A stretch of DNA of 62,705 bases from a virus (lineage: Duplodnaviria; Caudoviricetes): positions 1 through 62,705 of the IMG/VR virus record IMGVR_UViG_3300044788_000047; one strand, given 5' to 3'. Both the position numbers and the translations under genes were made by a program. The notes under the pieces are model-generated. The model worked only from the letters and a program-made list of their open reading frames with translations. It was not told where the DNA came from and made no database searches. Shown in pieces: positions 1 to 57,284 of the stretch (position 1 is its first letter; the number at the start of each line of letters is the position of its first letter).

Positions 1-144
1 ATCTCACGCGCCCACGTATCGAAATCCGTAGACCCGGCCTCGTAGACCGTCCCGCCGTAGTCCACCAAATCGTCAATGATGTCATCGGCCTCGTCCGCGC
101 CGATTGCCAGCGTCTCGATCGGCTTGTTGAGCTTGGCCTGCAAC
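1..144. repeat. Terminal overlap, left copy
   Basis: Identical to 62562-62705 except position 18 (A) vs 62579 (G), a synonymous GAT/GAC Asp codon on the minus strand. Confidence 0.97.
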
Positions 145-3100
145 CGCTTCTTGGCGGCCTCGGCCGCGGTCATGTCGAAGATTTTTACTCCTGGCCCCCC
201 GACGGCTGGCGCGGGAGCTTCGCCCCTTCCACCCCGTGCACCACCCCCTGATGGTGGGGAGGGAACAGTCGCCGCGGCGGGAGGTCCGGCTTGAGGGGCT
301 GCGGCCGAGGGAAGCTCGGCTGGGGGCGCGGCGGCAACGGCCGCATCGGCGCCGGGGGCAGCGCCAAGATCCTCGCCACCGCGGCCCGGTTGGGTCGGAT
401 AAAGGGAGCCCTGTTCAGGCGCATCTCGTTCCACCTTTCTGACGGCGGCTTCCCAGAAGTTGTCCCGTGTGAGATCCTGCGGCGGCAGGCCGGCGAGTTC
501 ACCCTGGTTCGGATCCGCGACCGCGGCATCGACCCGTTCGTAGTAGTTGGTGAGCGCCTCCTGAATCCGCTTGGATCGCTTGGCTTGGGCGTCGAACAGC
601 GCGAGGATCGACTTCGCCACCTGGCTGATACTCTCGTCGGGAATGAGCGATGGCTGCGTGAGTACGACGCCCTTTTCACTGTAGACGGGTTTGCCCAGGT
701 AGTTTTTTAGCGCGTCCGGATCGGAGCTCCCCCGAAGCTCGGAGAGCTTGAGCGCCGCGTCGGCGATCTCCTTGCTGAGGAGGAGCTGCGGCGCGATAGT
801 GGCGATCCGGCTCTCGACGGCGACCACCCGTGGGGCGATGTTCTGGAGCGCCATGAGGACATTCCGGATGTTCTCGTTCAGGTTCTCGGCCAGCGGAGCG
901 ACCAGGTTCTTGCCGTAGGCTTTGGCGAAGAGGGCGTTGCGTATCCTGGCCAAGCCTTCTTGACTGAGGCTCCCGTCTGGCGTGAGGTAGCGACCGCGCT
1001 CGGAGGCCGGCACGACGTCGGCCATGAAGGCGCGCACGAAGTCCCGGTTCTGCGCGGTGTTGATCTGTCCCGTCTCGGATGGCTGGAAGAGCGCGAGGAG
1101 TTTGGAGGACAGGTTCCCAGCGTCGATACCGGCGAGCTCGGTTGAGGACATCGCGGAGACGCTCGAGACGTTGGCTTCCTGCGCGAGCTTGGTGAGGTCC
1201 ATGGCCGGGTCGTCGATCACGCGCACGAGCACCGGAACGGTCGCCTTCTCGAAGTCTGCGGTGGAGATCCCAAACTTCTCGTGGTTCGCCTTGAGCCAGT
1301 CGTAGTACCGCTGCCCGGGCGCGCGGTCTCGCGCCTCCGGCCCGAAGGCCTTCCTGAGCGCCTCGGTACGCCGGTTCCCCGAGATGACGTTGCCGTACTG
1401 GTCGAGGATCGGGGCACCCTGGCTCGCGAGCCGGCTCTCCCCGAGCTGCTCCGGGTCGAGCTGGCCGGCGATCGCGTGCTCGGCCGCCTCATAGACGCCG
1501 CGCTCTTCTACCGCCCGCGGCTGGTACTGCTGCGGGTAGCCCGGCATCCGAGAGGTCCTGGCCTCCGGCAGGTCGATCACCGCCCACTTGAACGGCACCT
1601 TGGTCCCAGCTTCGGTCACGGCCTCGCCAGTGGCCCCGTACTGCGCCTTGAGTGACGGTTGTCCACCCGCGAAGCCTCGTTTCTCCAGCTCTTGAGCAAC
1701 CAAAGGGAACCTCTCCCACATCTCCTGCATGCCCATAACGAGTTGGCCCTGGACCCTGAACGTTTGTTGTGGTTTCCCTCCGACCGAGTAGGGACGCATG
1801 ATCTCAATGTTGGCGCGGCCAACTCGAAACGTCTGCGGCTCCATCGGGCCCGGTGCTGTGACCGTAGGTGTCACAGGTGTCGGCGCTGCTGGCGCCTGTG
1901 GCACCTCCGGCGGGACCTCGACAGGCCGGGCGGCCGGAGCCATCGTCTTGGCCTTGCGGATCTCCTCGTCGATGAAGGCCATCCGTCCGATGTCCACGGA
2001 CCCGGGTTCCCGCCCACGCAGGTTCGCTCGGATGTAGGTCCTGACCATCTGGCCGATGCGGCGGAGCGCCGGTTCTGGAAGCCCGGTATGAGCCTCGAGG
2101 GCAGCCAGGTAGTCGGCATCCCGCTTCGATGGCACCTGCTGGGCGACGATGTAGAGTCCCTTCTCGAGGTCCCGGGTGAAGGCAAGGTCGTAGGACTTGT
2201 CCTGGATGTTGTACCGGGGCTTGGCGCCGGCGAGCTCGCGTGGTAGGGTGAACTCGCCCTTGAGTGGGGCAGCAGCACCCGGTAGCTCCGGTGCCGCAGC
2301 GGCCGGAGCTTGAGCCGGAGATGGCTCGGCAGGGCGCGGGGCGGGGGTCTCCGGAACGGTCTCCCCAACAGCGGCAGGCGCTCCGGGGACCTCCGCCGGG
2401 ATGGTCACTTCTGGGGGTCCAGCGGGCCGCGCCGGGGCCTCTGGGGCGACTTCGGCCGCCGGAGGACGTACCACCTCAATGGGACCGGCCGGAGCCTCCT
2501 CTGGCCTTGCGGCGGCCTCTGGCGGAGCTTCTGGGGGTGCGGCCTCGGCATCCTCAGCTCGCTTCGCCCCCTCTTCGTAGGCGACCCGCCCGGCTTCCCG
2601 CTGGAGGATCGCCTGGGCGGCCGACAGCTCGGCCTCGTCCTGGGTCTGCCCCCTGCGCCGGAACACGCTCACCAGCCGGCCGAACTCGGCCGCCTCGACC
2701 TTCTGCCGGGCCTCGGCGATCGCGAGCTTGACCGTGTCGTCCAGCGGGACACCCTTGGCCTTAGCCTCCCGCTTGAGGCCCTCAAGGACCAGGCGAGGAT
2801 CCCGGCCGTGGAAGAGGAAGAGCATGTCCAGCCCGTAGTCGAAGGCTTTCTGGGCCAGCGGGCGCTCGTCGAATGGGTGCTGGAGGTTGACGGCGTCGTT
2901 CAGGACGGCCCCGATACCCCATCGGGCGGCGAGAGACGGGAGTTCCTGCCCGGTGAAGGTCCCGCTCACGCCACCGAACACCGCGCCCGTCAGGGCCCCC
3001 TTCCCAGCCGCCTTGAGCAGCACCTTGCCCGCCTCGAGCACCGACTCTTTCTCGAAGGCATGGCCGGTCTCGGCGGCGGCCGAGGCGGCGGCCAGCGTAG

Positions 3101-3902
3101 CCGCCTCCTTGATCACCGCCTTGCCGAGGATGGTCCTGGTGGTGTCGGTCATCAAGGGCGCGAGATACCGCCCGATGGTGGCTTCCGTAGCTGCGCGAGC
3201 CGCAATGTACGGTGTGGTCAGGAATCCAGCGACGTGGCCTGCCCCGTAGGCAAGACTCTCGCCGATCGTCTCGGGCTCCTGGTCGGGAAACCCCGTCGCG
3301 CGCTTGACGGCACCACCGATGCCCAGCGTTACCGCTTCCGCAGCTCCCGTGAGCGCCTGGCCGACCACTCTCGGGCCCGGCTCACGGTACTCGGATACCG
3401 GCACTCCGGTCTCTCGCGCGCCGAGCGCGACGACCGCCTTCGCGCCTTCGGCCGTTTTCCGCCGCTCCTCGGCCTTGCCGAGGTCGAGCAGGCCCAGACC
3501 CGAGAGGATCCTACCGAAGACCCCGGGCTCAGTGGTCCTCTTGGTGCCTTCCGGTGCAGCCCGAAGTTCTGGCTCGGTTGCGACTCGGGGTGGCCGCTCC
3601 GCTGGCTTCGGTGCCCTCGCCGCGAGGTCCTCTTCCATGCCGCCCGTCGAGAAGGCACGGCTGGCTACCTCACCTACGGCCCCAGCGGCAGCGCCCACGG
3701 CCTCTCCCACTGCACCGGCAACAGCGCCGGCTCCACGCGCGATCTGCCGCCCCGTTTCAGCGGCACCCTCGAGGAGCGGCCGGCCGAAGATCGAGGGATA
3801 CGCGGGCGCCGCCGGTTCAGGCGGGATCTGGAAGGCGCTCGTCGCCGGGGCCTCAGCCACCGCAACGGCCGCATCGTCTTCCGCGGGAATCGTGAACGCC
3901 AT
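1..3902 (-). CDS. Giant polyvalent virion/ejected protein, N-terminal ~1,300 aa (Pro/Ala linkers + ddrB-like ParB domain); continues across the origin into 62561-57281, ~3,060 aa total
   Basis: Missing from the ORF track because it runs off the edge. Manual translation from ATG at 3902 (TAATG overlap with the upstream stop) is open to base 1 and in frame with the 57281 ORF. Contains YQPR...LDPEQLGESRLASQGAPILDQYGNVISGNRRTEAL...PVLVR...DGSLSQEGLARIRNALFAKAYG. Confidence 0.88.
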   Translation of the reverse strand, partial: MAFTIPAEDDAAVAVAEAPATSAFQIPPEPAAPAYPSIFGRPLLEGAAETGRQIARGAGAVAGAVGEAVGAAAGAVGEVASRAFSTGGMEEDLAARAPKPAERPPRVATEPELRAAPEGTKRTTEPGVFGRILSGLGLLDLGKAEERRKTAEGAKAVVALGARETGVPVSEYREPGPRVVGQALTGAAEAVTLGIGGAVKRATGFPDQEPETIGESLAYGAGHVAGFLTTPYIAARAATEATIGRYLAPLMTDTTRTILGKAVIKEAATLAAASAAAETGHAFEKESVLEAGKVLLKAAGKGALTGAVFGGVSGTFTGQELPSLAARWGIGAVLNDAVNLQHPFDERPLAQKAFDYGLDMLFLFHGRDPRLVLEGLKREAKAKGVPLDDTVKLAIAEARQKVEAAEFGRLVSVFRRRGQTQDEAELSAAQAILQREAGRVAYEEGAKRAEDAEAAPPEAPPEAAARPEEAPAGPIEVVRPPAAEVAPEAPARPAGPPEVTIPAEVPGAPAAVGETVPETPAPRPAEPSPAQAPAAAAPELPGAAAPLKGEFTLPRELAGAKPRYNIQDKSYDLAFTRDLEKGLYIVAQQVPSKRDADYLAALEAHTGLPEPALRRIGQMVRTYIRANLRGREPGSVDIGRMAFIDEEIRKAKTMAPAARPVEVPPEVPQAPAAPTPVTPTVTAPGPMEPQTFRVGRANIEIMRPYSVGGKPQQTFRVQGQLVMGMQEMWERFPLVAQELEKRGFAGGQPSLKAQYGATGEAVTEAGTKVPFKWAVIDLPEARTSRMPGYPQQYQPRAVEERGVYEAAEHAIAGQLDPEQLGESRLASQGAPILDQYGNVISGNRRTEALRKAFGPEARDRAPGQRYYDWLKANHEKFGISTADFEKATVPVLVRVIDDPAMDLTKLAQEANVSSVSAMSSTELAGIDAGNLSSKLLALFQPSETGQINTAQNRDFVRAFMADVVPASERGRYLTPDGSLSQEGLARIRNALFAKAYGKNLVAPLAENLNENIRNVLMALQNIAPRVVAVESRIATIAPQLLLSKEIADAALKLSELRGSSDPDALKNYLGKPVYSEKGVVLTQPSLIPDESISQVAKSILALFDAQAKRSKRIQEALTNYYERVDAAVADPNQGELAGLPPQDLTRDNFWEAAVRKVERDAPEQGSLYPTQPGRGGEDLGAAPGADAAVAAAPPAELPSAAAPQAGPPAAATVPSPPSGGGARGGRGEAPAPAVGGPGVKIFDMTAAEAAKKRLQAKLNKPIETLAIGADEADDIIDDLVDYGGTVYEAGSTDFDTWARE

Positions 3903-6146: not shown

Positions 6147-7382
6147 CTAGTCCGGCCACTGAATATCCCACCCGCTCAGGGCCACCGCGTCGATCGAATA
6201 CGTCGGGGAGACGGCGTAGAAAATCGTGGACCGGGGATCTCCCCGCGTGGGCACCCGCATGGGCGCGCCGCTCTGGCCCGATTGTTCTTGATAGAACGCC
6301 GCGACCTTGGTCACCGTCGGCACGCCACTCCACGATTGCCAGTGAAATCCTGCCGTCGCGCCTCCCGCCACGAGGACGTTGATTTCCACGGCACTCACGG
6401 CGACCGTCGGCACATAGGCGCTCAAGTCGAGGGCCGTGGCGTTCGTCAGAACCGAGCTGGTGATGACCTGGGGCGGCGTGGCGAAACTAAATGAGCTATC
6501 AAACTGGACGCCCTTCAAAAAATGCGCGGTGGCATCCGTCCCGAAACCGCCCACGAGGCGCCGCTTCGTGTAGCCGATCGGCATCGTGGGGTTGGTCCCG
6601 GAGGTCGAGAGGAGACCCGAGAAGGTGTTGGAGGGCGGCCTGAGGATGACGTAGAGATAGTAAAACGTGTTGGCGGCCAGCGTCCCGCTGTCCAGCGCAT
6701 CGGCGCCGGTGGTCGTGGCGTCTACCGTCGTCGTGAAGGGCGACTTGATGAAGCCGGCCACGCTGATCCGATCGGCCGAGAGGTTGATTTTCGTGTTGGG
6801 CGTGCCGGGATTGTTGAGGGCGATGAACTTGATGGTCACGGCACTGCCGTAGGAACTCGACGGTCCCGTGAGCGTGTTGACGATCCCGGCATGGTCCCGG
6901 TACGCGAGCACGGTGTTACCGGCGCCATCGTCTTTCGCATAGAGCGATAGGGTATTGAGCGCCGGCGGCGGCGGCGGGTCGGCGATCTCGGTGTAACTCG
7001 TGTAGGTCGCTCCCCAGTGCTTCGAGACGTCGCGTGCCAGCGAGTTGTCGATCACTTCATACCAGTAGCTCTTTCCGACGATCGCCTTGAGTTGAAAGCG
7101 GAGCCGCTCAAGTTCTCCCTGCACCGTGCTCGCCTGGGAGGCCGAGGTGCCCGGAAACGGATCGACCGTCACCCGCATCTGGCTCACAGAGGAGGAATCC
7201 CCTGTGACACAGGAGGCGATGTTCGAGGTCACCGTCCGCGTGAAGGCGCTGTTGAGGTCCGTGGATGTCAGGATCTCGTTGAGGGCCCAGGTCTTGAAGA
7301 CGCCGCACTGCGCTGCGGCAGGAGCGGGCAGTCCCCACCAGAGCGCAAGCACGGACACTGCCACTAGCATTCGTAGGCTCAT
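6147..7382 (-). CDS. Tail fibre/spike-like protein with N-terminal signal peptide
   Basis: Start at 7382 (GAGGAG RBS). MSLRMLVAVSVLALWWGLPAPAAA|Q; anchor-like segment QM..TVDP...GELERLRF....IVGKSYWY; fibre-type DALDSGTLAANTFYYLYVI...PTMPIGYTKRRLVG. Confidence 0.7.
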   Translation of the reverse strand: MSLRMLVAVSVLALWWGLPAPAAAQCGVFKTWALNEILTSTDLNSAFTRTVTSNIASCVTGDSSSVSQMRVTVDPFPGTSASQASTVQGELERLRFQLKAIVGKSYWYEVIDNSLARDVSKHWGATYTSYTEIADPPPPPALNTLSLYAKDDGAGNTVLAYRDHAGIVNTLTGPSSSYGSAVTIKFIALNNPGTPNTKINLSADRISVAGFIKSPFTTTVDATTTGADALDSGTLAANTFYYLYVILRPPSNTFSGLLSTSGTNPTMPIGYTKRRLVGGFGTDATAHFLKGVQFDSSFSFATPPQVITSSVLTNATALDLSAYVPTVAVSAVEINVLVAGGATAGFHWQSWSGVPTVTKVAAFYQEQSGQSGAPMRVPTRGDPRSTIFYAVSPTYSIDAVALSGWDIQWPD

Positions 7383-7392
7383 GGGTCTCTCC

Positions 7393-7779
7393 TCATTTCT
7401 TGTTGCCAAAACTATACCCCCCGAGACTAAACGCCGTCTGTAATTGTGAAATCCGGAAGTATGGGAACGGAGTCTCGCCGAACGTTATCGGCTCACACGC
7501 GCTCTCCGCCGACGCGACGAGGTCGGGATCGCCGCTCGTGAAGATGGCCCGATAGGCTTTCGGGGCGACGTCGGTGATCAGGCGCTCGCTCGAGAGGACG
7601 ACCGCGCTGGTCCCGCCCGCTGGGACGGGCACGGTTTCCTCGGTGAAGTCACCGCTACAGTCGCCGGTCTCGTAGAACCGGAAGGTGATGGTACTTCCGT
7701 CCGGAATGACTCCACCAATGACGGCAACCACAGCCTGGTCGAGGATGACTACCGGGACGAAGACGAAGGGCGTCGTCAT
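7393..7779 (-). CDS. Ig-like (bacterial Big-type) virion accessory protein
   Basis: D.A.V...P.G.ITF.FY...C.G...Y.A.F..GD......S.CEP pattern with a Cys pair. Confidence 0.6.
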   Translation of the reverse strand: MTTPFVFVPVVILDQAVVAVIGGVIPDGSTITFRFYETGDCSGDFTEETVPVPAGGTSAVVLSSERLITDVAPKAYRAIFTSGDPDLVASAESACEPITFGETPFPYFRISQLQTAFSLGGYSFGNKK

Positions 7780-9365
7780 CAGACAACCGACCAGGTTCCC
7801 GCTAGCCAGACACTCGTCGAGAACGCAACGGTGACTGTGCCGGACGCGAATTTCCCTCCCTGATGGGGCCCCACCAGCACGTCCGTAATCACCATCACGC
7901 CGCCACCGGCATGGATTTCCCGGCCGATGTCTGTGGTGTCGAACGCCCCGACTAACACCTGAGTGCCTGGGACAGTGGTCTGCACGAACGCATCACCAGT
8001 CGAGACTGGGTGCGGGGCCCCGAAGTCAAAGTAGAGGTCGGCCAGCCGGAACTCCTCCGGCAGCGGGCCCGGTGGAGGCGGAGGCGGCGGGGGTGGCGGA
8101 GGCGGCGGGGGTGGCGGGGGCGGCGGGGGTGGCGGCGGAGGCGGCGGCGGTGGAGGTGGAGGCGGTGGAGGTGGAGGTGGAGGTGGAGGTGGAGGTGTAG
8201 GTGTAGTAGGAGGAGGCGGCGGCGGCGGAGGCTGTGGTGGCGCAGTCGGCGACGCCGACAGGAGGATCGTCGTCGTCACGCTGGCGACCCCTGCCGGCGG
8301 TGTGATCGCGGTTTCCTTGTTCAGGATGGGCGACGTCGGTGAGAGCGACGCGACGTCCTGGACGATGAGATTCGCAAAGACATGATAAGCAGGAAACTCG
8401 GCCCAACTCCCGCCCGACCGCTCGATATAGGCAAAGTTGTCCCCGCCATCGGCGCCAGCCAAGACCCCCGAAATGGTGCCATAGGCCCGAAGCGAGGTTC
8501 CGGCCCCACTCAGGCCGATGTAGTACGGTGTGCCATTGACAACTTCGAGGGGATCGAAGTAGACAGTCATCGGCGTGACGCCGCCCGACGAGCGCACAGC
8601 CGCCAAGAGCGTAGCCGATCGCAGGGCCACGCCGGCAGCGTTGTAGATCCCGATGACGGTATCTACGGTGACGTCGCAATCGAGGCGGACCCCGCTGATC
8701 TTCATGTCCCACGGCGGAATAAACTTGGCGCCGACCAAGTCCGCGCCACCCGACGGCAGGGAGATGATGGCGGAGCTCGACGCGAGACACCCCCAGGGCA
8801 CGAGCCATTCGTCGTCCTCAACATAATGCAGCGCCAGAAGCGGGACTGTTTCCCCTGTGCCCCCGGTCGAGTTCCAACCAAGCGCATCTGGATCAGTGAC
8901 GCTATAGGGAAACCCCCACGATCCCGCTGGTCCGAGAAAGTACCGCGATCCAGTACTCGGCGATCCCCCGCCAAGACTGGCGACGGTCACACAACACGCA
9001 AGCAACTGGCCGCGCGTCACGGCAAGGCCAGAGTTCATATTTGCTGCTATCCATCCATTTGTGGGTAGTGCTGAAGACGGAATAGGCGCCCCGTGGTCGC
9101 CAGTGCCAATCACACCGGAACCTGTCGGCAGTCCATCCGCGCCAACCGTTTCAAGGCTCCACGTCACACCGAACACGCCTTGGACGATGTACGACTGATA
9201 GGCGTAGGCGTTGATCGTGCCCGTCTTGGGTGCGGCGATGACATAGCCGAATCGGGTGCCGACCACGGAGGCACCATCTAGCCAGTGGTAGAAGTTCTCG
9301 ATGGCCGGGGTGATGGCAAACTTGAAGTTCCACGGCCACGGCCAGTAGGCGACGGGGAGGGACAT
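7779..9365 (-). CDS. Virion accessory/receptor-binding-like protein: tandem beta-sandwich domains, polyproline stalk, C-terminal beta domain
   Basis: 528 aa; N-terminal ~340 aa paralogous to 9366-10358; 42 consecutive Pro; C-terminal domain paralogous to 45589-46119. Confidence 0.65.
   Translation of the reverse strand: MSLPVAYWPWPWNFKFAITPAIENFYHWLDGASVVGTRFGYVIAAPKTGTINAYAYQSYIVQGVFGVTWSLETVGADGLPTGSGVIGTGDHGAPIPSSALPTNGWIAANMNSGLAVTRGQLLACCVTVASLGGGSPSTGSRYFLGPAGSWGFPYSVTDPDALGWNSTGGTGETVPLLALHYVEDDEWLVPWGCLASSSAIISLPSGGADLVGAKFIPPWDMKISGVRLDCDVTVDTVIGIYNAAGVALRSATLLAAVRSSGGVTPMTVYFDPLEVVNGTPYYIGLSGAGTSLRAYGTISGVLAGADGGDNFAYIERSGGSWAEFPAYHVFANLIVQDVASLSPTSPILNKETAITPPAGVASVTTTILLSASPTAPPQPPPPPPPPTTPTPPPPPPPPPPPPPPPPPPPPPPPPPPPPPPPPPPPPPPPPPPGPLPEEFRLADLYFDFGAPHPVSTGDAFVQTTVPGTQVLVGAFDTTDIGREIHAGGGVMVITDVLVGPHQGGKFASGTVTVAFSTSVWLAGTWSVV
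8070..8195 (-). repeat. (CCN)42 polyproline tract
   Basis: 126 nt of mixed CCG/CCA/CCT/CCC codons, preceded by PPQPPPPPPPPTTPT. Confidence 0.95.
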
Positions 9366-10358
9366 TTAGCTTATCCCAGGGAGCGAGAGCGCGAGATGTG
9401 GGAAGCGGGTGGCGTCATCCGTCCACGCCCCGCCTGCTCGCGACGTGGCGATAGCGGCCACCCCGGCGGCTTGGATCGCCGCCGACATGGTCGTGCAGAA
9501 CAGTTTGAGACTCCCTGTCGTCGTCTGATACGCTGTGAGCCGGTAAGCGTCACCTTTCACGAGCGGGACATCGGTGGGCCACGCAACATAAGGATGGAAG
9601 GTGCCCGACTCCGAGTGTTGCTGGTCCGTCAACGCCTTCGAGGCGAGTAACGACCCGGCATCAGTATAGAGACGGATCTCGTAGTCGGCGTTTGTCAACA
9701 GCGCCATCACGGCACCGGCACACATCGCGTTGAACGGCATCACCAATCGACCCCCGACCTCGGACCCGATGGCCGACGCCGTGAGGGGCGCGTACATGCT
9801 CGTGGTGCCATCGCCGAACCACGTCGCCGCCGGGTACACGTAGTCCCCGTCGAGCGCCAGCGCCACCATGGGCTTATTGGTTGTCTTGCCCCACGCCGGC
9901 TCTGGAGACGCACCGAGGGTATAGGATTCTCCATCTCCTAGCACACCAGCGTTGTTGAGGTTCACGAAACCGCCGCCGAGCGTATTGAGACGTCGCACCA
10001 TGAGCGCGATCGGCTCGCCGACGGCGACTGTCCGTGTGCCTCCCCCATCGGCCCCGGTGTCTGTCGGCGACAGATCCATCCAGGTCGGACTCGCCGAGGG
10101 TACAACGAAATCACGATAGTAGGTTTCGGCGGCGACAGGGAATCCGGTTGTGAGATCCACGAGCCGCACAGACACGCGCACGGTATCGGCAGGCCCGCTT
10201 AGTTGCAAACCGATCTTTGTAATGTCGCCGGAGAAGGGAGCTCGGAACACAAAACCGCTTGTACCACTCGAGGCAATCGCCTTCGACGCCTGCGACGCGA
10301 GAATAAAGTTCTGCGGGCCAGTGGGCCACCACACGCCGCCGCCGACGGCCAGCGCCAT
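9366..10358 (-). CDS. Virion accessory beta-sandwich protein, paralogue of the N-terminus of 7779-9365
   Basis: Shared pattern WP..P.NF...G.V..AP..G.I...G.P...VG.....P......G......D..I..Y..AG..L.S..L...GG.W. Confidence 0.6.
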   Translation of the reverse strand: MALAVGGGVWWPTGPQNFILASQASKAIASSGTSGFVFRAPFSGDITKIGLQLSGPADTVRVSVRLVDLTTGFPVAAETYYRDFVVPSASPTWMDLSPTDTGADGGGTRTVAVGEPIALMVRRLNTLGGGFVNLNNAGVLGDGESYTLGASPEPAWGKTTNKPMVALALDGDYVYPAATWFGDGTTSMYAPLTASAIGSEVGGRLVMPFNAMCAGAVMALLTNADYEIRLYTDAGSLLASKALTDQQHSESGTFHPYVAWPTDVPLVKGDAYRLTAYQTTTGSLKLFCTTMSAAIQAAGVAAIATSRAGGAWTDDATRFPHLALSLPGIS

Positions 10359-10381
10359 CTATCGCTCGAGCATCCGGGCGG

Positions 10382-10795
10382 TCAGCAGCCCGTCCACGAG
10401 AAAATCCCCGCGTCATTCCACCCGGTCGGGATGTCGCCGCCGTCCGGCGTCTTCGGCAGGAGCCCCGCAATGGTGTCGAAGAGCGCGATCAGGTAGGAGG
10501 TCGCGGCGACCCCCGTGTCCTGATAGAGTCCAATATAGACGACCTCGTCGCCGCTGACAGCCGGGTAGGTGACGTTGTCCGCGTCGAAGACGCCGGCTGC
10601 ACTGACCGTCTTGCCCGTGAGTGCCACTGCGGTGCCCACGATCGCGCCACCGGGAATGTCCGACAGGAACTCGTCCGTCGCGAGGTTCGGCGTGTAGGCG
10701 GCCGAGAGGAGGACGGCCTTGATCGTGTCCGTGAGCAGGTCGATCTGCTTCGTGAGAAAGGCCCGGTGCGCCTTCCCATAGAGCGCGTTGGCGAT
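10382..10795 (-). CDS. Small minor tail/fibre-associated protein with probable ATC start (137 aa)
   Basis: GAGGAGG-N8-ATC GCC AAC GCG CTC TAT; reads (M)ANALYGK...IDLLTDTIKAVLL...FDADNVT...LIALFD...PDGGDI...WN..GIF, a pattern I recognise from phage minor tail proteins. The ORF track starts 52 codons downstream. Confidence 0.7.
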   Translation of the reverse strand: MANALYGKAHRAFLTKQIDLLTDTIKAVLLSAAYTPNLATDEFLSDIPGGAIVGTAVALTGKTVSAAGVFDADNVTYPAVSGDEVVYIGLYQDTGVAATSYLIALFDTIAGLLPKTPDGGDIPTGWNDAGIFSWTGC

Positions 10796-10811
10796 GGCTA
10801 GGTCCTCCTCA

Positions 10812-12779
10812 TCACGGATTCGTCCCGATGTACCCGTGATAGCGGATCCGATGCCCGCGCCCGCGCAGGCGCCGCGCGCAGAAGAGCGGCGTCAGCCACC
10901 CGAGCGTCTGCTGATCCAGGTACGACTGATCCAGGATGAAGCTCGAACTTTTCCCCTGGAGGGGAATCTTCAACTGCGTCGGCTGGAGGACCCCGTCGAT
11001 GTAGACGTCGATCGTCAGAAACCAGGCGCCGACGGGTAGCCCTTCGACGATCAAGAAATGGTAGTTCTTCTGCGAGACTTTGTATTGGTCGCCGAGGTGC
11101 TGGAAGTTGTCGTCCCAGGTCTCCCACTCACTCCGGTAGGGGACATTCACGTCAGCGTAAATCGCCTGGTAGCAGAGTTTGATGATGCCGCCCGACCCGC
11201 TCGCGATGGGCGTGCGGCTCCCGTCGATGTTGATATGCAGACACAGTCCCTCGCATTCAGGAAAGGTCGAGTGGTGGAAGCGAATGCCGAAGTCGGGCAG
11301 CCGCTTGATGTTCATTTTGAGACGCAGGTTGTTGACGAGGGAGCCCTTCTTGCTGAAGCCGCCCCACAACTCCTCGATCTGGTCGAAATAGATCAACTGA
11401 CAAAACGGCAGTCGCCCCTTGTCTACGTTATCTTCGAGAAATTGAGCATAGGTCTCTTGCGAAATCGAGGAGGCGTTGACGTCGCCGAGCTGATAGGCCG
11501 CGGTCTTCGACATCCGATGCCACGAGCCGTCCGGCGCGATAAAGATCACGTCGTCATAGAACTGGCTCTGGTCCGACCCCTGAATGACGGTGATCGCCAA
11601 GGGCCCCACGCACCCGACCGCGTTCGTGTGTTCATTCACCGTCCACTGGGTCACATCGAGGCTGCTCGTGTCGATCCGGTAGATACCCCGGGGCTTCTTG
11701 TAGATCCACCCCTGGCCACGCCAAGACACGCCCGCCGTGATGCCATCCCCCTTGCCGGTGAAGATCGGGATCGTGATGGGATTCGAGAGAAAGTCCTCGT
11801 GGTCGGTCCTCGAGGAGACGTACAAGACATGGACGTTGTTCGTGTTCCCAAAGCACGCAAGGCGACCTTCCATGAGGAACCCGGCCGTCGGCTGGTTGTC
11901 GAGGCTCCAGTCGAGCGGCGGGCGGCTGATCCGATGCACGGAGCGCGTCGAGTTGTAGACCGGCGCGACGCGATGCGTCTCGGTGCCATCGTTGCCGGTT
12001 TGGCCATCTGAGAAATTGTCCGTATAGTCGGTGGTCCCGTTGTCATCGAGTGTGTGGAGAAAGATCGGCGGTGGCGTGATGAGCGCCGTCCCGGGATCGT
12101 AGGCGATGCTCCGGAAGATCCGGCGAAACGTCGTTCCATCGGGCCCGGTCGGCACGAACAGTTGCACCCGCGCGCGATTGCCGTTGGCAATGACCACACT
12201 GGTCACCGGCCCGGCCGCGGTCTCGCCGCGCGCATTGCCGAAGACATAGGTGTAGTCGTGCTGGCCGAGGTTGATCGCGCCCTCAGTCTCTAGCACGGTC
12301 GCGCCCAGGGGCACGGTCGGGTCCGCGAGCCCCGTATCGGTCGTGGCATCCCCGCTGAGCACTTGCGGCGGACCCCCACCGAAGAGGATGAGCTTCGGGG
12401 GATAGCCCGCGATCTCGGAGCCGCATTCGACAGGGACCATGAGCCGATCCGGCTTGAGTCCGGCGACGAGGCGCATGTAGGTACGCCCGTCGTCCTGACT
12501 GATGTGGATGGTGCCATCGCGACCGCAGGCGACCATCCGGGACGTATCGGGATACGGGAAATACTGGTGGATCGTGCCGACAACCGGGCTGTCTTGCAAC
12601 GGAAACTCGACCATCATCCGAGTCCCCGGCTCCGTCTCCCACAGGTCGTTTTCGAGCGTGCAGTTGATGAGGGCCTTGAGAAACTTTGGGCCGGCCACGT
12701 TGACCGCGTTCGGGTTCATCGTGGCGTACTCGGCCCCTTGGCCGGCGCGCTGCGGGAGGAGGAGCTCCCTGTACCCCAT
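10812..12779 (-). CDS. Tail tubular protein B / P22 gp10-like nozzle (stabilisation) protein
   Basis: 655 aa, beta-rich; F.MEGRL, LYVS, GDGITAG, VGCVGP..I, DVIFIAPDG, SI; follows the adaptor gene. Confidence 0.75.
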   Translation of the reverse strand: MGYRELLLPQRAGQGAEYATMNPNAVNVAGPKFLKALINCTLENDLWETEPGTRMMVEFPLQDSPVVGTIHQYFPYPDTSRMVACGRDGTIHISQDDGRTYMRLVAGLKPDRLMVPVECGSEIAGYPPKLILFGGGPPQVLSGDATTDTGLADPTVPLGATVLETEGAINLGQHDYTYVFGNARGETAAGPVTSVVIANGNRARVQLFVPTGPDGTTFRRIFRSIAYDPGTALITPPPIFLHTLDDNGTTDYTDNFSDGQTGNDGTETHRVAPVYNSTRSVHRISRPPLDWSLDNQPTAGFLMEGRLACFGNTNNVHVLYVSSRTDHEDFLSNPITIPIFTGKGDGITAGVSWRGQGWIYKKPRGIYRIDTSSLDVTQWTVNEHTNAVGCVGPLAITVIQGSDQSQFYDDVIFIAPDGSWHRMSKTAAYQLGDVNASSISQETYAQFLEDNVDKGRLPFCQLIYFDQIEELWGGFSKKGSLVNNLRLKMNIKRLPDFGIRFHHSTFPECEGLCLHINIDGSRTPIASGSGGIIKLCYQAIYADVNVPYRSEWETWDDNFQHLGDQYKVSQKNYHFLIVEGLPVGAWFLTIDVYIDGVLQPTQLKIPLQGKSSSFILDQSYLDQQTLGWLTPLFCARRLRGRGHRIRYHGYIGTNP

Positions 12780-14026
12780 CAGTACGCCGGCTCCTCTCGG
12801 GTCCGCGTCCGGTTGCCCGACACGCCGAGGAGCTTCTGGTCCTCATCGGCTCCCATGAGTTCCCGCTCCTCCTTCCACTTCCGCTCCCACGTGACGGCGC
12901 GCGAGTCGTTCTTCATCTCGAGCAGGTGGAAGAGCACGCCATCGGCGAGCACCCAGCGCCAGTTCCTCGGGACGAGGATCTCCGACACGCCGAGGGTCTG
13001 CGAGAGGTCGCGTGCGACGATGGTGTGGTAGATTTCGACGAACCCGTCCTGGCTGGGAAAGTGGGAGAACCGGAGCCGAGTGTCGCTCACACGGGCGTAC
13101 TTGTAGGGCGGCCATGTGGGGTTCGGCGGATCCGGGTAGTGGTCCGTCAACCACGAGACCGTGACAGGCCCCTCGATCTCGCGGCCTGACGAGGGCCCCT
13201 TCGGCTGCATGGTGATGATCTGGCGCACGCCACCGGCCGTGTCGAGCTGCGGCGGCCGCTGGGCGGCGGTGATCGGCCCGATCGTGACGAGATCGCCCGC
13301 GTCGGCCACGTTGTAGGCGTAGGTCGTCGTCACGTTGTCCGCGAGCGTCGCGATCAGGAAGAATCGCGTGCCGCCTGCCTCGGTGGCGTAGAGGTTGCGG
13401 TAGGTCGTGCCCGGCGGCCCAACCGGAATGTTCGTGATGTTGAGCACCGACGCCACCGCGAACGTGATGGACGCGGGCGGGCCCGCCATGTTCTCCCCAA
13501 AGTCGTTGCCAAAGGACACCACGACGGAGCGCGGGCCGAGGTCCACGAGACCGCCGCCGCCGCTGGTGAGCGTGGGCGCCGTCGGGGTCTCCTGGATGCT
13601 CGTCAGGTCGTATTCGTCCCTGTAGACCGTGACCCCCAGGCCGGCAAACGGCGCGATCAGGAACGGCGACTCGAGCGTCACGAGCGCGGAGCCGGCCACG
13701 TGCGAGAAGATCCGCACGCCATAGGTGACGCCGGGGGCCAGGATCTTGAACCCAGTGAGGTTCTGCGCGACGACCGCACCCAAGATCGCCGTGTAGCCGG
13801 AGGACCAGGTCAGCGTGGTCGCGATCGGCCCGTAGAGCCTCAGCATGAGCGGGGTGGCCGCCCGGGCGAAAAGCCACGGCTTGTAGTTGAGAAGCTCCTG
13901 GTAAGCCCGATCGCCGGCGCGCGCGGACATGCCGAAGAACTCGCTGACGTCCAGGCCGGTCTCTTCTTCGGCCCGGTCCATGGCGTCAGCTCGAATGAGC
14001 GGCCAGGTGTCGAAGCTGCCGGACAT
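12779..14026 (-). CDS. Tail tubular protein A / head-tail adaptor
   Basis: N-terminal helices (RAYQELL..KPWLF); C-terminal P.KY...LRF...P......EI.H...LVP..WR.VLADG pattern; position. Confidence 0.7.
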   Translation of the reverse strand: MSGSFDTWPLIRADAMDRAEEETGLDVSEFFGMSARAGDRAYQELLNYKPWLFARAATPLMLRLYGPIATTLTWSSGYTAILGAVVAQNLTGFKILAPGVTYGVRIFSHVAGSALVTLESPFLIAPFAGLGVTVYRDEYDLTSIQETPTAPTLTSGGGGLVDLGPRSVVVSFGNDFGENMAGPPASITFAVASVLNITNIPVGPPGTTYRNLYATEAGGTRFFLIATLADNVTTTYAYNVADAGDLVTIGPITAAQRPPQLDTAGGVRQIITMQPKGPSSGREIEGPVTVSWLTDHYPDPPNPTWPPYKYARVSDTRLRFSHFPSQDGFVEIYHTIVARDLSQTLGVSEILVPRNWRWVLADGVLFHLLEMKNDSRAVTWERKWKEERELMGADEDQKLLGVSGNRTRTREEPAY

Positions 14027-15639: not shown

Positions 15640-16833
15640 CTAACTCTCCTGTGAGGCCGCGTGCAAGCGGCCCGCGGCGAACAGCGCCACGATCGCCTGC
15701 TGCGGCATGTGAAACGTCGGACTCCCCAACGAGTTGACGGCCGCGACGATCGCGACGCCGACCCACATCAGATCCCTGTCCTGTCCGGTCCCCATCAGCA
15801 CCCAGGCGCCTCGGCTGAGACGCCAGACCCACCAGCCGACCAGCGCCACGCCGACCAGGCCGAACTCAAACCAGAGCTGGAGCGGCTCGTTGTGGGCCTG
15901 CATGGTGACGGGGGACCCGATCGCGCCGGCCTTCTGAGCCTGCTCATTGACCACGATCGACCAGAGCCTCCACGAGCCGGGCCCGTTCCCGACCACCCAA
16001 TGCTGCCGCAGATCCGGCCAGGCGTTCGCCCACACGGCCGTCCGGCCAGACGTGGCCGTCGAGAGCAGGGTGTCGCCGTGACTGTCCGGCCGCTGGATAT
16101 GCTGCACGCTCACCGCGACGATCAGCACCACGAGCGCCGCGCCCATGACGGGCCGCCACGATGAGGGCAGATCGCGCCAGGACATCAGCGCCAATCCGGC
16201 CGCGCCGGAGACCACGGGGCCGATGTTGCCGGTCGCGACGGTGCCGGCGACCACCAGTAGCGCCCACCAGCGACCACCGAGCGCGTAGACGACCGGCACG
16301 CCGAGCGCCAGGTAGGCGCCCCAGAAGTTCGGATGCGTGAGCCAGCCCATCGGCTTCCCGACGAATGCCTTGAGCAGTGTCGGCGTGCCTTGCGACGTCG
16401 TGACCCCGAGCCAGCGCAAGGGGTCGCCGAGGACATTCGGGCTCGGGTAGAACTCGAAGAGATTCATACCGCCGAGGATGCCTTGAATCGCCACGCCAAC
16501 CACGAGTGCCCAGGCGCAGCGGGTCGCCGCCACTTCCGACAGGGCCGCCGCTTCGACATAGAGCAGCGCCGCCATCACGAGGACGAACAACACCTGGAAC
16601 CCACGGATGGGGACGCCCGCCCACAGCACATGCGCCAGGGTCCATCCCAGAAAGAGGGCGACCGGCCAACTCGCCCGGCCGACCCACCGAAGCAGCAGCA
16701 GGCCGGCCGCCACCAGCATGTACGCGATGATGGCGCCGCGCTCGGGCACGAGCGCGAGGTTGAAGGGCAGCGGGAGGGCGAGGCTCCCGAGGAGCCCCAC
16801 CCAGACCGCCGGCCAGAGCGGGCGCGGTGTCAT
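15640..16833 (-). CDS. O-antigen ligase / O-oligosaccharyltransferase-like (Wzy_C family) polytopic membrane protein
   Basis: About 11-12 hydrophobic segments; G.L.HPNF.GAYL; SGR..VW..AW......W..GNGPGSW; QAHNEPLQLWFEFGLVG with the conserved Arg and His of the periplasmic loop. Confidence 0.85.
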   Translation of the reverse strand: MTPRPLWPAVWVGLLGSLALPLPFNLALVPERGAIIAYMLVAAGLLLLRWVGRASWPVALFLGWTLAHVLWAGVPIRGFQVLFVLVMAALLYVEAAALSEVAATRCAWALVVGVAIQGILGGMNLFEFYPSPNVLGDPLRWLGVTTSQGTPTLLKAFVGKPMGWLTHPNFWGAYLALGVPVVYALGGRWWALLVVAGTVATGNIGPVVSGAAGLALMSWRDLPSSWRPVMGAALVVLIVAVSVQHIQRPDSHGDTLLSTATSGRTAVWANAWPDLRQHWVVGNGPGSWRLWSIVVNEQAQKAGAIGSPVTMQAHNEPLQLWFEFGLVGVALVGWWVWRLSRGAWVLMGTGQDRDLMWVGVAIVAAVNSLGSPTFHMPQQAIVALFAAGRLHAASQES

Positions 16834-17827: not shown

Positions 17828-18919
17828 TTAGTTGTTGGTCCGGTACGTTCTGATGCTGATCATCGCGTGATCGACCGCGTTGAACACGGCCTTCTTCACG
17901 CCGTAGATGGCCCCGATCGCGAACCCGACCTTATTCCCGTAGTCGAACTCTTTCTCGACCCACCGTGGCCGCTCGCCCCATGCGTAGGCCGCGGCCTGTC
18001 GCGCGACGAACTGCGCGTTGGCGCCCGGCAAGTTGCTGCCGGCTCCGTAGGTCGTGCTCGTCGCAATGTCCTCATGGACGTGACAGATGACGCCGTCCCA
18101 GATGCCGACCGACCCCTCGAAGAGCGGGTTGTCGTCGCCGCGCGTCTGCGCTTCCCGCTGCGCCTGGATCCACGCGGCGTCGAAGGTCTTGAGATCCGAC
18201 TCCTGATCGGGGTGCATGATGAGCACGTAGTATTCCTTGCTGCCGATCTTGACCGGCCAGAGCTTCGGCGCGGCCTTCTTCGCTTTCGTCTTGGCCTTGG
18301 TGATCAGGGCGGTCGTCAGGTAGTCGCCGACGTTGAGCGTGGCCGTCGAGGTGGCCGAGCCGCCGTAGACCGACGTGGACGGGGACAGGTCGATCGCCGC
18401 GAAGATGTCTGCGTCGATCGTCTCCGCCAGCCACGTCGTCAGGAGCTCCTTGGCGGTCATGCGCTGGTTCCAGGCCGTGCGGCGCTCCGACATGCGGCCC
18501 TTGAGCCGGACGGCGTTGCGCTTCTGGTCGATGGTGACGGCATCCGTGAAGTCCGCGATGGCTTCTTCGGAGTTCTCGAGGTCGCCGTCGCCGGTGGTGC
18601 CGGCCCCCTGCAACTTGCGGATGAACGAATAGGTGATCTTGTCGCCGGGTTGCCCCTCGAGCTCATCCTTCACCTGGATGATGTTGTTGAGTCCCCGGCC
18701 CATGAACTTGTTCCAGTAGATGAGCTTGGGCAATTCCACCCAGGCATCGCGACTCCACTTCTTGACCGTGGCCGCGTTGCCCGTCAGCCACTCCGAGTCG
18801 GCCCCGCCAGAAATCGGCAGGAGGCCGGAGCGCGCGAGGAAGAACGCATCGGGGATCGACAGCCCCGCCTCACGCCAGATCGTGTAGGCGGTCAGCCACC
18901 TCTTCAACATCTGCATCAT
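17828..18919 (-). CDS. Major capsid protein (N4-gp56-like), 363 aq with a 39-aa leader
   Basis: ATG at 18919 after AAGGAG; VKKWS, EL..QPGDKIT, GDGDLENSEE, IDQKRNAV, YVLIMHP.Q..DL, NPLFEG..G.WDGV, DYGN..G. Confidence 0.9.
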   Translation of the reverse strand: MMQMLKRWLTAYTIWREAGLSIPDAFFLARSGLLPISGGADSEWLTGNAATVKKWSRDAWVELPKLIYWNKFMGRGLNNIIQVKDELEGQPGDKITYSFIRKLQGAGTTGDGDLENSEEAIADFTDAVTIDQKRNAVRLKGRMSERRTAWNQRMTAKELLTTWLAETIDADIFAAIDLSPSTSVYGGSATSTATLNVGDYLTTALITKAKTKAKKAAPKLWPVKIGSKEYYVLIMHPDQESDLKTFDAAWIQAQREAQTRGDDNPLFEGSVGIWDGVICHVHEDIATSTTYGAGSNLPGANAQFVARQAAAYAWGERPRWVEKEFDYGNKVGFAIGAIYGVKKAVFNAVDHAMISIRTYRTNN

Positions 18920-18944
18920 GGCTCGGCTCCTTCTGCCTGTCCGC

Positions 18945-19880
18945 TCAGACGCGGCCCCCCGCCAGGTACGCATCGCGCACGGACTTGGGAAGTCGCGCAT
19001 ACTCCTCGTCCGGCATCTTCTCGATGTCGGTATCGGTGAGCACACGCGGCTCACGGCCCGTAGCGTGCGACAGGCGACGGACGCCGCCAAAGCGATCGGC
19101 GGTTGTTCGCACTTCGATGACGGGGCGCGGAGTCTCCTCTCGCGCGCCGTCGGATCTTGGCGTGGTCGGTTCCAGCTCACCCCGCTCCTCACGGATCGAC
19201 ACGGCGAGCGCGTAGGCGTCCTCGCCGGGATCTTCGGACATGAGGATCAGCTTCCGCCACATCACGGGGTCCCTCGGCTTGCCGGTGGCGGGGTCGATGG
19301 CGATCGCGTCGGCCACGCCGGACTTGTTGAGCATCTCGTCGTAATCATCGTGCTCGAAACGGGCCAGCTTTTGGCTGATGCGGATCACGCCCTTGCGGGC
19401 GGAAATGATCCCCGGCTCCATCTCGCTGATGATCTCGCTCTTGATGGCCGGGAGGGCCGACGTCAAATCCTGGGCTTCTTCGAGTGTCTTGCGGTTCTCA
19501 GCGCGTGTGGCTTCGTCGCGGAGTCGCTTGGCTTCGGCTTCCGCGTGCTCGTGCGCTGCGCGCTCCTGAGCCAGCTCGTCTCGGAGGCGCTTGCCATGCT
19601 CCCGCTCATGCTTGAGCGCGGTCCCGAGGTTCGCCGCCCTAGTCGCGTCATCGACCTTCGGCTTCGGTTCCTCGGCCCCAAGGACCTTCTCCTCGGGCTT
19701 CGCCTGGTAGACAACCTCCTCGGCTGGGGCGACATCCTCGCCCGCCAGACCGGGGTCTCCCTTGTGGTCAGGGAATGTTGGCGTCTCGTCGGCTTCGGGA
19801 GTCTCCTCGCCGGGCTCGAGTACCGCCGCCGCCGACGCTTCGGTCGGCGAGTCCGCAGACGCGCTCTTCCGTCGTTTCAT
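18945..19880 (-). CDS. Capsid scaffolding protein
   Basis: Acidic N-terminus, ALKHERE coiled coil, C-terminal IEKMPDEEYARLP; directly upstream of the MCP. Confidence 0.75.
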   Translation of the reverse strand: MKRRKSASADSPTEASAAAVLEPGEETPEADETPTFPDHKGDPGLAGEDVAPAEEVVYQAKPEEKVLGAEEPKPKVDDATRAANLGTALKHEREHGKRLRDELAQERAAHEHAEAEAKRLRDEATRAENRKTLEEAQDLTSALPAIKSEIISEMEPGIISARKGVIRISQKLARFEHDDYDEMLNKSGVADAIAIDPATGKPRDPVMWRKLILMSEDPGEDAYALAVSIREERGELEPTTPRSDGAREETPRPVIEVRTTADRFGGVRRLSHATGREPRVLTDTDIEKMPDEEYARLPKSVRDAYLAGGRV

Positions 19881-19999: not shown

Positions 20000-20404
20000 C
20001 TAGATCCAGACATCTCGCTCGAGCTGGTTCGCAAGCTCATGGGCACGCCGGCCGACTTGGTCCTTGTAGGGCCCGTCGAGGAGTTCTTTCGCCGCCGTGG
20101 CATAGTCTCCCGCCTCGAGCGCCCCATACATCTTCGGGTTCTTCCCGACCCAGCCGATCCCTTCGTTGAAGGTGAGGTTGAGGAGGGCCCCCTGCCGCGC
20201 GTCGGAGAGACGCGACCAGAACGGCAACTGCAAACAGGCCGTGTGGGCAGCCGCCACATCGTCGCGGAGGATCTGATCGCGGGCAGCCCAGGACAGCGGC
20301 ACCGCCATGTTGTGTCCGACCCCGACCGTCCAGTTCCCACGCGAATCTTGATAGGGCGTCGCGCGGTCCCCTTCGTGTCGGCGCAACTGCTCGAAGATGT
20401 CCAT
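20000..20404 (-). CDS. Phage lysozyme (GH24, T4-like)
   Basis: HEG......YQD..G.WTVGVGHN (E-x8-D-x5-T triad); RQGALLNLTFN.G; QVGRRA. Confidence 0.9.
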   Translation of the reverse strand: MDIFEQLRRHEGDRATPYQDSRGNWTVGVGHNMAVPLSWAARDQILRDDVAAAHTACLQLPFWSRLSDARQGALLNLTFNEGIGWVGKNPKMYGALEAGDYATAAKELLDGPYKDQVGRRAHELANQLERDVWI

Positions 20405-56871: not shown

Positions 56872-57284
56872 TTCTTCCTCTTGGGCCACTTCGGGAGCCA
56901 CTTGGGGAGACGGTCGAAGGCGGCGTCGTACTCGGCCCAGTTCGCGTTCAATTCGTGTGCGACCAGGCGCTCGATCGCGATGCCGAACCGATGCTCCTTG
57001 TAGTACGGCGCCTTCGGGTCGTCGCCGGCCTCGTCGATCGCCGGCCCCTTCACGCCCTTTGGCGCTTTCCACGCAAGATCCCAGTTGTCCACTTGCTTTG
57101 CCGTGATGCCCCGGAAATGACACAGCATTGCCTCGTGAAGCTCGTGCGTCGCGACCAGAAACTCATAGTGCTCACAGCCCATCTTCGAGACGCGGATCTC
57201 CAACGTGTCACCGTCAAACCACCAATTTCCGGACGTGTCGTAGGTTTGCTCGTCATGGGGGATGGTCTTGATGACGATGTTCAT
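56868..57284 (-). CDS. Small putative metal-binding hydrolase-like protein (HExxE)
   Basis: Y.T.G.W...EI.VS...LVA.HELHEA.LC...E.GD...APY..EH..GI..ER; coupled to both neighbours. Confidence 0.55.
   Translation of the reverse strand: MNIVIKTIPHDEQTYDTSGNWWFDGDTLEIRVSKMGCEHYEFLVATHELHEAMLCHFRGITAKQVDNWDLAWKAPKGVKGPAIDEAGDDPKAPYYKEHRFGIAIERLVAHELNANWAEYDAAFDRLPKWLPKWPKRKK

Follow-up and report, generated by a model that had tools for sequence, protein, structure and literature searches.

In the podophage A1002 of Pseudomonas, the nozzle solved by cryo-EM consists of two proteins, a nozzle-base (gp42) and a nozzle-rope (gp39), which complete each other's platform and propeller strands and whose genes have fibre genes between them (PMC13730344). 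The C-terminal platform of the T7 nozzle is described as a jelly-roll contacting two adaptor subunits (PMC6702177), and in Sf6 the N- and C-terminal extensions are said to build jointly a domain wedged between the adaptors (PMC9728967). The nozzle considered here, from an uncultured phage of sediment origin, has the same overall fold from N- to C-terminus and occupies the same position in the gene order as those of T7 (gp12), P22 (gp10), Sf6 (gp8), Pa223, SU10, and VP1, but these canonical nozzles include the last platform strand in their own chain, and in the window (the whole 62,705-nt stretch analyzed) it is on another ORF. The relevant features are:

6147..7382, minus strand: fibre-like gene, with its likely ATG at 7380-7382; directly after the intact nozzle gene in relatives
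7393-7779, minus strand: Ig-like ORF (from the ORF list), cassette gene 4, 128 aa
7396..7461, minus strand: orphan last platform strand, residues 107-128 of the Ig-like ORF (homologue alignment, tblastn); stop codon at 7393-7395
7462..7479, minus strand: linker, residues 101-106 (pLDDT ~50), including the right junction
7467-7474, minus strand: right junction, GACTCCGT, inside the linker of the Ig-like ORF
7480..7779, minus strand: Ig-like domain, residues 1-100, ending at CEP (phmmer links, AF2)
7779..9365, minus strand: cassette gene 3, 528 aa
9366..10358, minus strand: cassette gene 2, 330 aa, no named family
10382..10795, minus strand: cassette gene 1, 137 aa, phrog_644 family, similar to Brujita gp23
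10814..10821, minus strand: left junction, GAATCCGT, overlapping the nozzle stop codon
10812..12779, minus strand: nozzle or tail hub gene ("tail tubular protein B"), 655 aa, assigned by fold search on a relative's model
17828-19192: capsid gene
20404-22602: P22-like portal gene

A nozzle gene and its missing strand

By the modeled fold of a close relative, the 655-aa ORF is a podophage nozzle, or tail hub, in agreement with the "tube B" label given to it in a sequence-only reading of this DNA. The fold tests used an AF2 model (pLDDT 85.5) of an intact homologue, P0002, which is 72% identical to the window's protein. This model aligned end to end with solved nozzles at Z scores of 21-29 (Pa223 29.4, SU10 28.3, VP1 26.8, P22 gp10 25.2, Sf6 gp8 24.2, and T7 gp12 ~21); with Pa223, 459 residues were aligned, model positions 4-672 against chain positions 2-513. 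The last strand of the model is at residues 658-668, and the alignment reaches the very C-termini of the solved nozzles. Gene order is likewise that expected of a nozzle gene, after portal, capsid, and head-completion genes and before fibre and ejection-protein genes: the P22-like portal and the capsid genes come first, and the fibre-like gene and large polyvalent proteins are downstream. Searches with the sequence itself yielded much less, with no family match in Pfam, PHROGs, or NCBIfam, none by tblastn against GenBank phages, and none in a profile search of genome contigs; a PDB profile search matched only a ~130-aa domain of the GP4 nozzle (8jov_A, E 1e-7). An Atlas pointer to PF11134 is a lead only.

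The nozzle ORF ends in ...RLRGRGHRIRYHGYIGTNP, with final residues GYIGTNP followed by TGA TGA, and lacks only the final strand of its platform domain, which in this family is ~21 aa long. The sequence-only reading had expected a family C-terminus extending further, and 14 of 16 close homologues (P0002-P0017) do run past RLRGRGxRI...G into a conserved [YFW]F[RK]I...F[SD].GG strand, the exceptions being P0007 and P0010. It had also placed the missing strand 3.35 kb downstream, fused in frame to the C-terminus of the Ig-like ORF (...CEPITFGETPFPYFRISQLQTAFSLGGYSFGNKK), and the two-piece match found there agrees: by tblastn against the window's record, residues 1-653 of P0002 align to 10821-12779 and residues 655-676 to 7399-7464, the latter with 82% identity (E 4e-7).

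The orphan strand is highly conserved as a peptide. It is identical to that of P0003 at 20 of 21 residues, vs. 71% identity for the nozzle body. Compared with locus L001, it has a pN of 0.11 with saturation at synonymous sites (13.5 differences over 13.3 sites), a synonymous divergence not reached by any of 146 21-codon windows from the nozzle body and fibre (maximum 0.88). A peptide kept while its synonymous sites saturate argues for continued selection on the strand, although part of this constraint could predate the split.

AF2 predictions for the Ig-like ORF have pLDDT 87-96 over residues 11-100, falling to ~50 in the linker and ~65 in the tail, so the tail is no confident part of the Ig fold. 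Residues ~4-100 are related to Big_3_5 repeats, as judged from phmmer links to two Big_3_5-bearing proteins (P0023 and P0024, with 11 and 7 repeats; E 6e-43 and 1e-35) and the confidently predicted beta-sandwich. There was no direct match to Pfam, the PF16640 Big_3_5 model included, nor any Foldseek match of the model to the PDB at E <= 0.001, and scanning IMG/VR with an alignment of the Ig protein gave none either. Within the size range of 70-224 aa, the only small strand carrier recovered was the window's own; among longer proteins, the tail profile had 13 matches, consisting of 10 nozzles, two contig-end fragments (P0178, P0179), and again the window's own protein. Across the databases searched, no complete small protein other than that of the Ig-like ORF was found to bear the strand.

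The cassette and its insertion site

The nozzle ORF and its strand are separated by a four-gene tail-accessory cassette of 3,347 bp, located in the final beta-hairpin loop of the platform domain. Its ORFs all run on one strand in tight succession, stop and start codons abutting or overlapping by one base. The protein of gene 1 is 49% identical to gp23 of mycobacteriophage Brujita, which is sited among minor tail protein genes; its probable start is an ATC at 10793-10795, 7 nt past GAGGAGGA, whose Ile aligns with Met1 of the Brujita protein. Genes 2 and 3 have a ~115-aa stretch in common (26% identity, E 5e-4), and neither has a tblastn match among GenBank phages. In gene 3 a ~75-residue proline tract (DNA ~8031-8264) lies between the N-terminal part and a C-terminal domain of ~100 aa. 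For gene 2 there are weak leads to DUF4082 and lectin-like domains.

That this block was inserted at the 3' end of the nozzle gene, as first proposed from the letters alone, is supported by relatives: in all three related loci whose ORFs were read (L001, L002, L003) the nozzle gene adjoins the fibre gene directly. In the tree, the intact P0002 and P0003 are the sister group of the window's nozzle (support 100/100), which makes the split a derived state. Members of one sister clade carry in-frame BNR-type inserts of 370 or 730 aa in the same hairpin loop, after which the chain (in P0005, P0006, P0177, and L003) returns to the last strand. With these inserts in one clade and a cassette here, the last platform hairpin is an insertion hotspot, occupied in this phage by four genes.

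Two details of the junctions noted in the sequence-only reading were confirmed. Near-identical 8-mers are present at both on the minus strand (10821-10814 and 7474-7467), and excision of the 3,347 bp between their TCCGT copies would leave both frames in register. The repeat amounts to only five exact bases. Its presence at both junctions weakly exceeds chance (a rough estimate of 0.04-0.15, some slack in junction positions allowed). The 8-mer is not enriched in the window, with 4 matches vs. 5.46 expected, and was rejected as a recombination site on that ground.

Possible consequences of the split

If the nozzle is functional, its last strand could be supplied in trans, be dispensable, or be restored by removal of the cassette; alternatively, the genome could be a dead end. 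Supply in trans, in which the strand would dock the Ig-like protein onto the platform of the nozzle, seems to us the best reading of the sequence, and a somewhat probable one. The nozzle would be translated without its final strand, and the ~21-aa strand would be made at the C-terminal end of the last cassette protein, following the Ig-like domain and six linker residues. As the phage tail is assembled, this C-terminal end would insert into the open platform jelly-roll by strand complementation, restoring the nozzle fold, and six copies of the Ig-like protein would thereby be fixed at the nozzle-adaptor level of the tail. The split, the insertion, the identity of the fold, and the strand's conservation are established by the data. 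We infer this docking and its stoichiometry, and also a role for the other three cassette proteins: the Ig-like copies may be a foot for these, among them two lectin-like proteins, one with a long polyproline spacer. The original suggestion that the accessory proteins as a group dock through the single strand goes beyond the evidence, as only the Ig-like protein carries it.

It is also conceivable, if rather unlikely, that the strand is dispensable: the shortened nozzle would work alone, the tail of the Ig-like ORF would be a leftover of the insertion, and the cassette proteins would attach otherwise or not at all. P0007 and P0010 form a well-supported clade (100/100) whose 641-aa nozzles stop before the strand, represented by two 90% clusters with whole genes on contigs of four different lengths, so that a nozzle without the strand may function. 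A leftover fragment would by chance be read through in frame in ~1 of 3 cases, and database searches turned up no second small carrier. Against this, the 14 homologues keep the strand, even past inserts of 370-730 aa, and the strand in the window shows no decay. In solved tails the platform jelly-roll touches the adaptor, and this is its final strand. The P0007-type clade may itself be split. Two 121-aa relatives of the Ig domain with a linker and short hydrophobic tail (P0029, P0035) were considered as plugs for nozzles of this type and dropped, their contigs differing in length from those of the nozzles and the hhalign probability against the tail profile being 0.2%.

A dead end, that is, a defective recombinant genome or an assembly chimera, appears very improbable. 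The record is a single linear contig of an uncultured virus, with ~80% estimated completeness and no isolate; however, separate assemblies of three DNA runs (X1, X2, X3) contain both junctions at >= 99% identity, X3 not being flagged as a possible source of the DNA. Coverage is even over both junctions, and every ORF of the module is open and tightly coupled. In an RNA run (X4), small contigs were found inside the cassette only; since these may be DNA carry-over, they are no evidence on splicing or expression.

Removal of the cassette, either from DNA (a deletion between the TCCGT copies, site-specific or through microhomology) or from RNA, had been offered in the sequence-only reading as the other way to an intact nozzle; it found no support and is the least probable of these accounts, with hardly any weight left to it. 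The short direct repeats would yield an in-frame joint, but the contigs of the three DNA runs span both junctions uncut, and no 10814-to-7467 joint was reported among them, though contigs drop rare variants. No long flanking repeats were found, the four ORFs contain no recombinase, homing endonuclease, Hint, or reverse transcriptase domain (Pfam, PHROG, NCBIfam), and Rfam has no match at E <= 1 between 7000 and 11200; with neither ribozyme nor Hint or endonuclease domain detected in these searches, the insert does not resemble an intron of the self-splicing type, an intein, or a homing-endonuclease element. Two further routes, translational bypass and protein splicing, were rejected, the insert being 3.3 kb over four ORFs in different frames with no Hint domain.

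Supply of the strand in trans is a better reading than removal at the DNA or RNA level. More tentatively, and with the odds rather against it, the 21-aa strand could be a portable docking tag that travels with any loop insert, the platform hairpin being a plug-and-socket and its two nozzle-coding flanks homology arms. The outlying synonymous divergence of the tail would then mean that the plug came with the cassette from a donor already split or insert-bearing, and the strandless P0007/P0010 clade would represent further split cases. If so, related phages could swap single domains or multi-gene receptor-binding cassettes at this site by recombination.

Docking in trans would make this the smallest natural split known for any phage nozzle, with one strand anchoring added tail proteins. 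It would provide a simple rule for locating the attachment of accessory receptor-binding proteins on short-tailed phages, and a short, naturally occurring tag with which new proteins could be attached to phage tails. A single protein family displays the successive stages together: a loop left intact, a loop with in-frame domain inserts, and one with a multi-gene insert. For annotation, the warning is that a "truncated" nozzle gene need not be broken.

Comparison with known split systems

In the donor-strand complementation of chaperone-usher pili, a beta-sandwich lacking one strand is completed by a strand of another polypeptide. The resemblance to the arrangement proposed here is by analogy only: there is no homology, chaperone, usher, or polymerization.

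The essential nrdA gene of Aeromonas phage Aeh1 is reportedly fragmented by inserted DNA and its product reassembled as protein (PMC3045599). There too an insertion splits an essential gene, which presumably recovers its function when the pieces come together, but the insert is a homing-endonuclease element in an enzyme gene, whereas in the window the cargo is tail genes, the host gene is structural, and one of the pieces consists of just one strand fused to a cargo protein.

The closest parallel is the A1002 nozzle. In both cases a one-protein nozzle fold is split over two polypeptides of the tail module, and the missing strands are at the C-terminal end of another tail protein with an Ig-like domain. 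In A1002 the fold is completed by strand complementation, as solved by cryo-EM; for the window complementation is proposed. They differ in scale and position: in A1002, ~150 residues (platform-C and two partial blades) come from a 620-aa rope protein encoded upstream, while in the window only ~21 residues, one strand, are found on a 128-aa protein encoded downstream. A split nozzle was thus already known from A1002, and the arrangement here is a further variant, one whose intact and in-frame-insert relatives reveal how the split arose.

A nozzle gene without its last strand

The window, a whole IMG/VR virus record (linear, 62,705 bp, completeness estimate ~80%), carries every late gene on the minus strand. 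Those needed here, with the first and last genes of the four-gene cassette between the nozzle gene and a fibre-like gene, are:

20404-22602, minus strand: P22-like portal gene
17828-19192, minus strand: Phage_capsid_3 capsid gene
10812-12779, minus strand: nozzle ORF, 655 aa, ending ...RLRGRGHRIRYHGYIGTNP, then two stop codons
10821-10814: octamer GAATCCGT
10382-10795, minus strand: cassette gene 1, phrog_644, 49% identical to mycobacteriophage Brujita gp23
7393-7779, minus strand: cassette gene 4, Ig-like ORF, 128 aa, ending ...CEPITFGETPFPYFRISQLQTAFSLGGYSFGNKK
7474-7467: octamer GACTCCGT

An O-antigen ligase-like multi-pass membrane protein gene (15640-16833, minus strand; Wzy_C, E 2e-12) sits within the structural module, capsid genes on one side and tail genes on the other. 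Two giant polyvalent-type proteins are encoded at 3-3902 and 57281-62704 (-), one with a ddrB-ParB domain, the other with LPD38 and helicase domains.

The 655-aa protein has no match in Pfam, PHROGs or NCBIfam, and none by tblastn among GenBank phages; 5.8 billion proteins yielded 21 matches, including the window's own. Its closest intact homologue, P0002 (676 aa, 72% identical), was folded with a 20-row alignment (pLDDT 85.5, pTM 0.82). By Foldseek and VIA-align, the model resembles nozzles and tail hubs of podophages, with alignments that run from the first to the last residues of both partners: Pa223 (Z 29.4), SU10 (28.3), VP1 (26.8), P22 gp10 (25.2), Sf6 gp8 (24.2), GP4 (22.1), and T7 gp12 (~21). 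The name "tube B" given in the sequence-only reading is therefore right. The model's final two strands are residues 645-652 and 658-668, and the loop joining them is the site in question. In the excerpts available, the T7 C-terminal platform is described as a nine-strand jelly-roll, three strands being N-terminal, with two adaptor subunits bound (PMC6702177), and the Sf6 apical domain as built jointly by N- and C-terminal extensions and wedged between adaptors (PMC9728967). A ~90-aa domain (G.H.Y.Y.F.N..GET...GP.GT..R.IYR) is repeated in the nozzle and the upstream 415-aa protein (12779-14026, minus strand), within whose gene tblastn with P0002 matches 13184-13588 at 30% identity.

Comparison of the last 45 residues of P0001-P0021, the nozzle and its homologues, bears out the expectation that the window's displaced tail would match theirs: a conserved terminal strand ([YFW]F[RK]I..I...F[SD].GG...) ends 14 of the 16 close homologues (P0002-P0017), the exceptions being P0007 and P0010 (641 aa), which end before it. 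In four more distant homologues (P0018-P0021), read unaligned, ~20-25 residues of strand-like pattern come after the G.G.R motif. The window's 655-aa protein lacks the strand, and the 128-aa ORF bears it (82% identity to the P0002 tail, E 4e-7, in a separate tblastn piece after that of the body). Across all fetched loci, a scan for the tail motif located it once in the window, separated from the nozzle body by 3.35 kb; tail and body share one ORF in the related loci L001-L006, and L007 and L008 cover the gene's 5' part alone. The 641-aa nozzles (P0007, P0010, P0173, P0174) form a clade that ends before the last strand, and their genes are complete on contigs that have four distinct lengths.

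The inserted cassette and its junctions

Both octamers are where they were first placed, 3,347 bp separate the TCCGT copies, and deleting this span would leave the frames in register. DNA alignment puts the breakpoints only a few bases from the octamers; microhomology at an illegitimate junction fits the five shared bases as well as other explanations do. A homologue of the fibre-like gene (6147-7382) directly follows the nozzle gene in L001, L002 and L003 (nozzles 72%, 50% and 60% identical to the window's), the loci in which downstream order was read, as proposed for an inserted block. Insertion and split are established at the level of sequence and fold, and the initial observation as a whole holds.

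A maximum-likelihood tree of nozzle bodies (21 rows, close ones cut 8 residues past the RLRGRG motif; partial P0017 omitted, and likewise P0001, a shorter call of the window's own gene) places the window nozzle as sister to intact P0002 and P0003 (100/100). The next clade (P0005, P0006, P0177; 100/100) has in-frame inserts in the same loop, ~370 aa long or, in P0177 and L003, ~730 aa, with BNR/sialidase-type repeats, after which the conserved strand resumes in the chain. Strand-less P0007 and P0010 form a third, separate clade (100/100). The hairpin loop is thus a hotspot changed at least three times, with the intact form ancestral.

In Brujita, the neighbours of the gp23 gene encode minor tail proteins. 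No ATG, GTG or TTG start is present for cassette gene 1 at 10793-10811 (minus strand); an ATC codon 7 nt past GAGGAGGA lines up with gp23 Met1, pointing to a rare ATC start or else a sequencing variant. Genes 2 and 3 belong to no named family, share a ~115-aa stretch, and point weakly towards DUF4082 or lectin-like domains; their GC3 (0.73, 0.70) is below that of flanking genes (0.82-0.91), consistent with foreign origin. Gene 3 includes a ~75-residue proline tract (8031-8264, GGN/CCN repeats), where contigs of three DNA sequencing runs (X1, X2, X3) all break. Gene 4 is the strand carrier: an Ig-like domain akin to Big_3_5 repeats (residues ~4-100) leads through a linker of 6 residues into the strand. 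Its AF2 model is confident for the domain (pLDDT 87-96), with the linker at ~50 and the tail, modelled as a strand, at ~65. The domain's nearest small relatives (P0029 and P0035, 121 aa; P0039, 149 aa) end in a proline-rich linker and short hydrophobic tail, a layout that may repeat this plug architecture for other sockets; comparison with the tail of the window's nozzle showed no similarity. The fibre-like protein and its homologues (from 10801 in L001, 10768 in L002, 5806 in L003) have a signal-peptide-like hydrophobic start (7290-7382, minus strand, in the window), in all four ending A-x-A, then Q-C, which is unusual for a virion fibre.

Fate of the orphan strand

The orphan strand is identical to that of P0003 at 20 of 21 residues and of P0002 at 18 of 21, with nozzle bodies 71-72% identical. 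Against L001, its 21 codons are saturated at synonymous sites (13.5 differences over 13.3 sites), with pN 0.11 (nozzle body: pS 0.565, pN 0.19); none of 91 body and 55 fibre-gene 21-codon windows matches this pS (maxima 0.88, 0.85). Such saturation at low pN suggests that the peptide has been held despite heavy silent change, or that the segment's history differs from that of its flanks, as might be expected had it arrived with the cassette; at 21 codons this is suggestive rather than proof, and the constraint may in part be older than the split.

The best explanation, and a probable one, is complementation, in which the Ig-like protein would supply the nozzle's lacking strand in trans. The last strand could instead be dispensable, being absent from P0007 and P0010 too, but this seems unlikely. 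A defective genome or chimera is quite improbable; contigs of all three runs span both junctions uncut at ≥99% identity. The record may derive from X1 and X2, whereas X3, whose contigs here are records 8 (7183-7600) and 13 (10134-10986), carries no such flag. The same contigs and several searches tell against removal of the cassette at the DNA or RNA level to make an intact nozzle, the other option first offered and a very improbable one: no 10814-7467 joint is listed among them (contigs can hide rare forms), 7000-11200 has no Rfam match at E ≤ 1, no long flanking repeats were found, Pfam, PHROGs and NCBIfam show no recombinase, endonuclease or Hint domain in the four cassette ORFs, and the junction 8-mer occurs in the window without enrichment (4 copies against 5.46 expected).

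Comparison with a known split nozzle

Besides the nozzle of Pseudomonas podophage A1002, the literature search turned up no split nozzle, nor any instance of one strand alone being relocated to another protein. As excerpted, the cryo-EM account of A1002 (PMC13730344) describes a nozzle of gp42 (the base) and gp39, whose C-terminal platform and propeller pieces fill in the strands gp42 lacks, with fibre genes gp40 and gp41 encoded between them. A split nozzle is already known, then; the window's case differs in that the separated part is one strand only, carried by a small Ig-like protein that comes last in a four-gene cassette, and in that relatives both intact and with in-frame inserts document the route.
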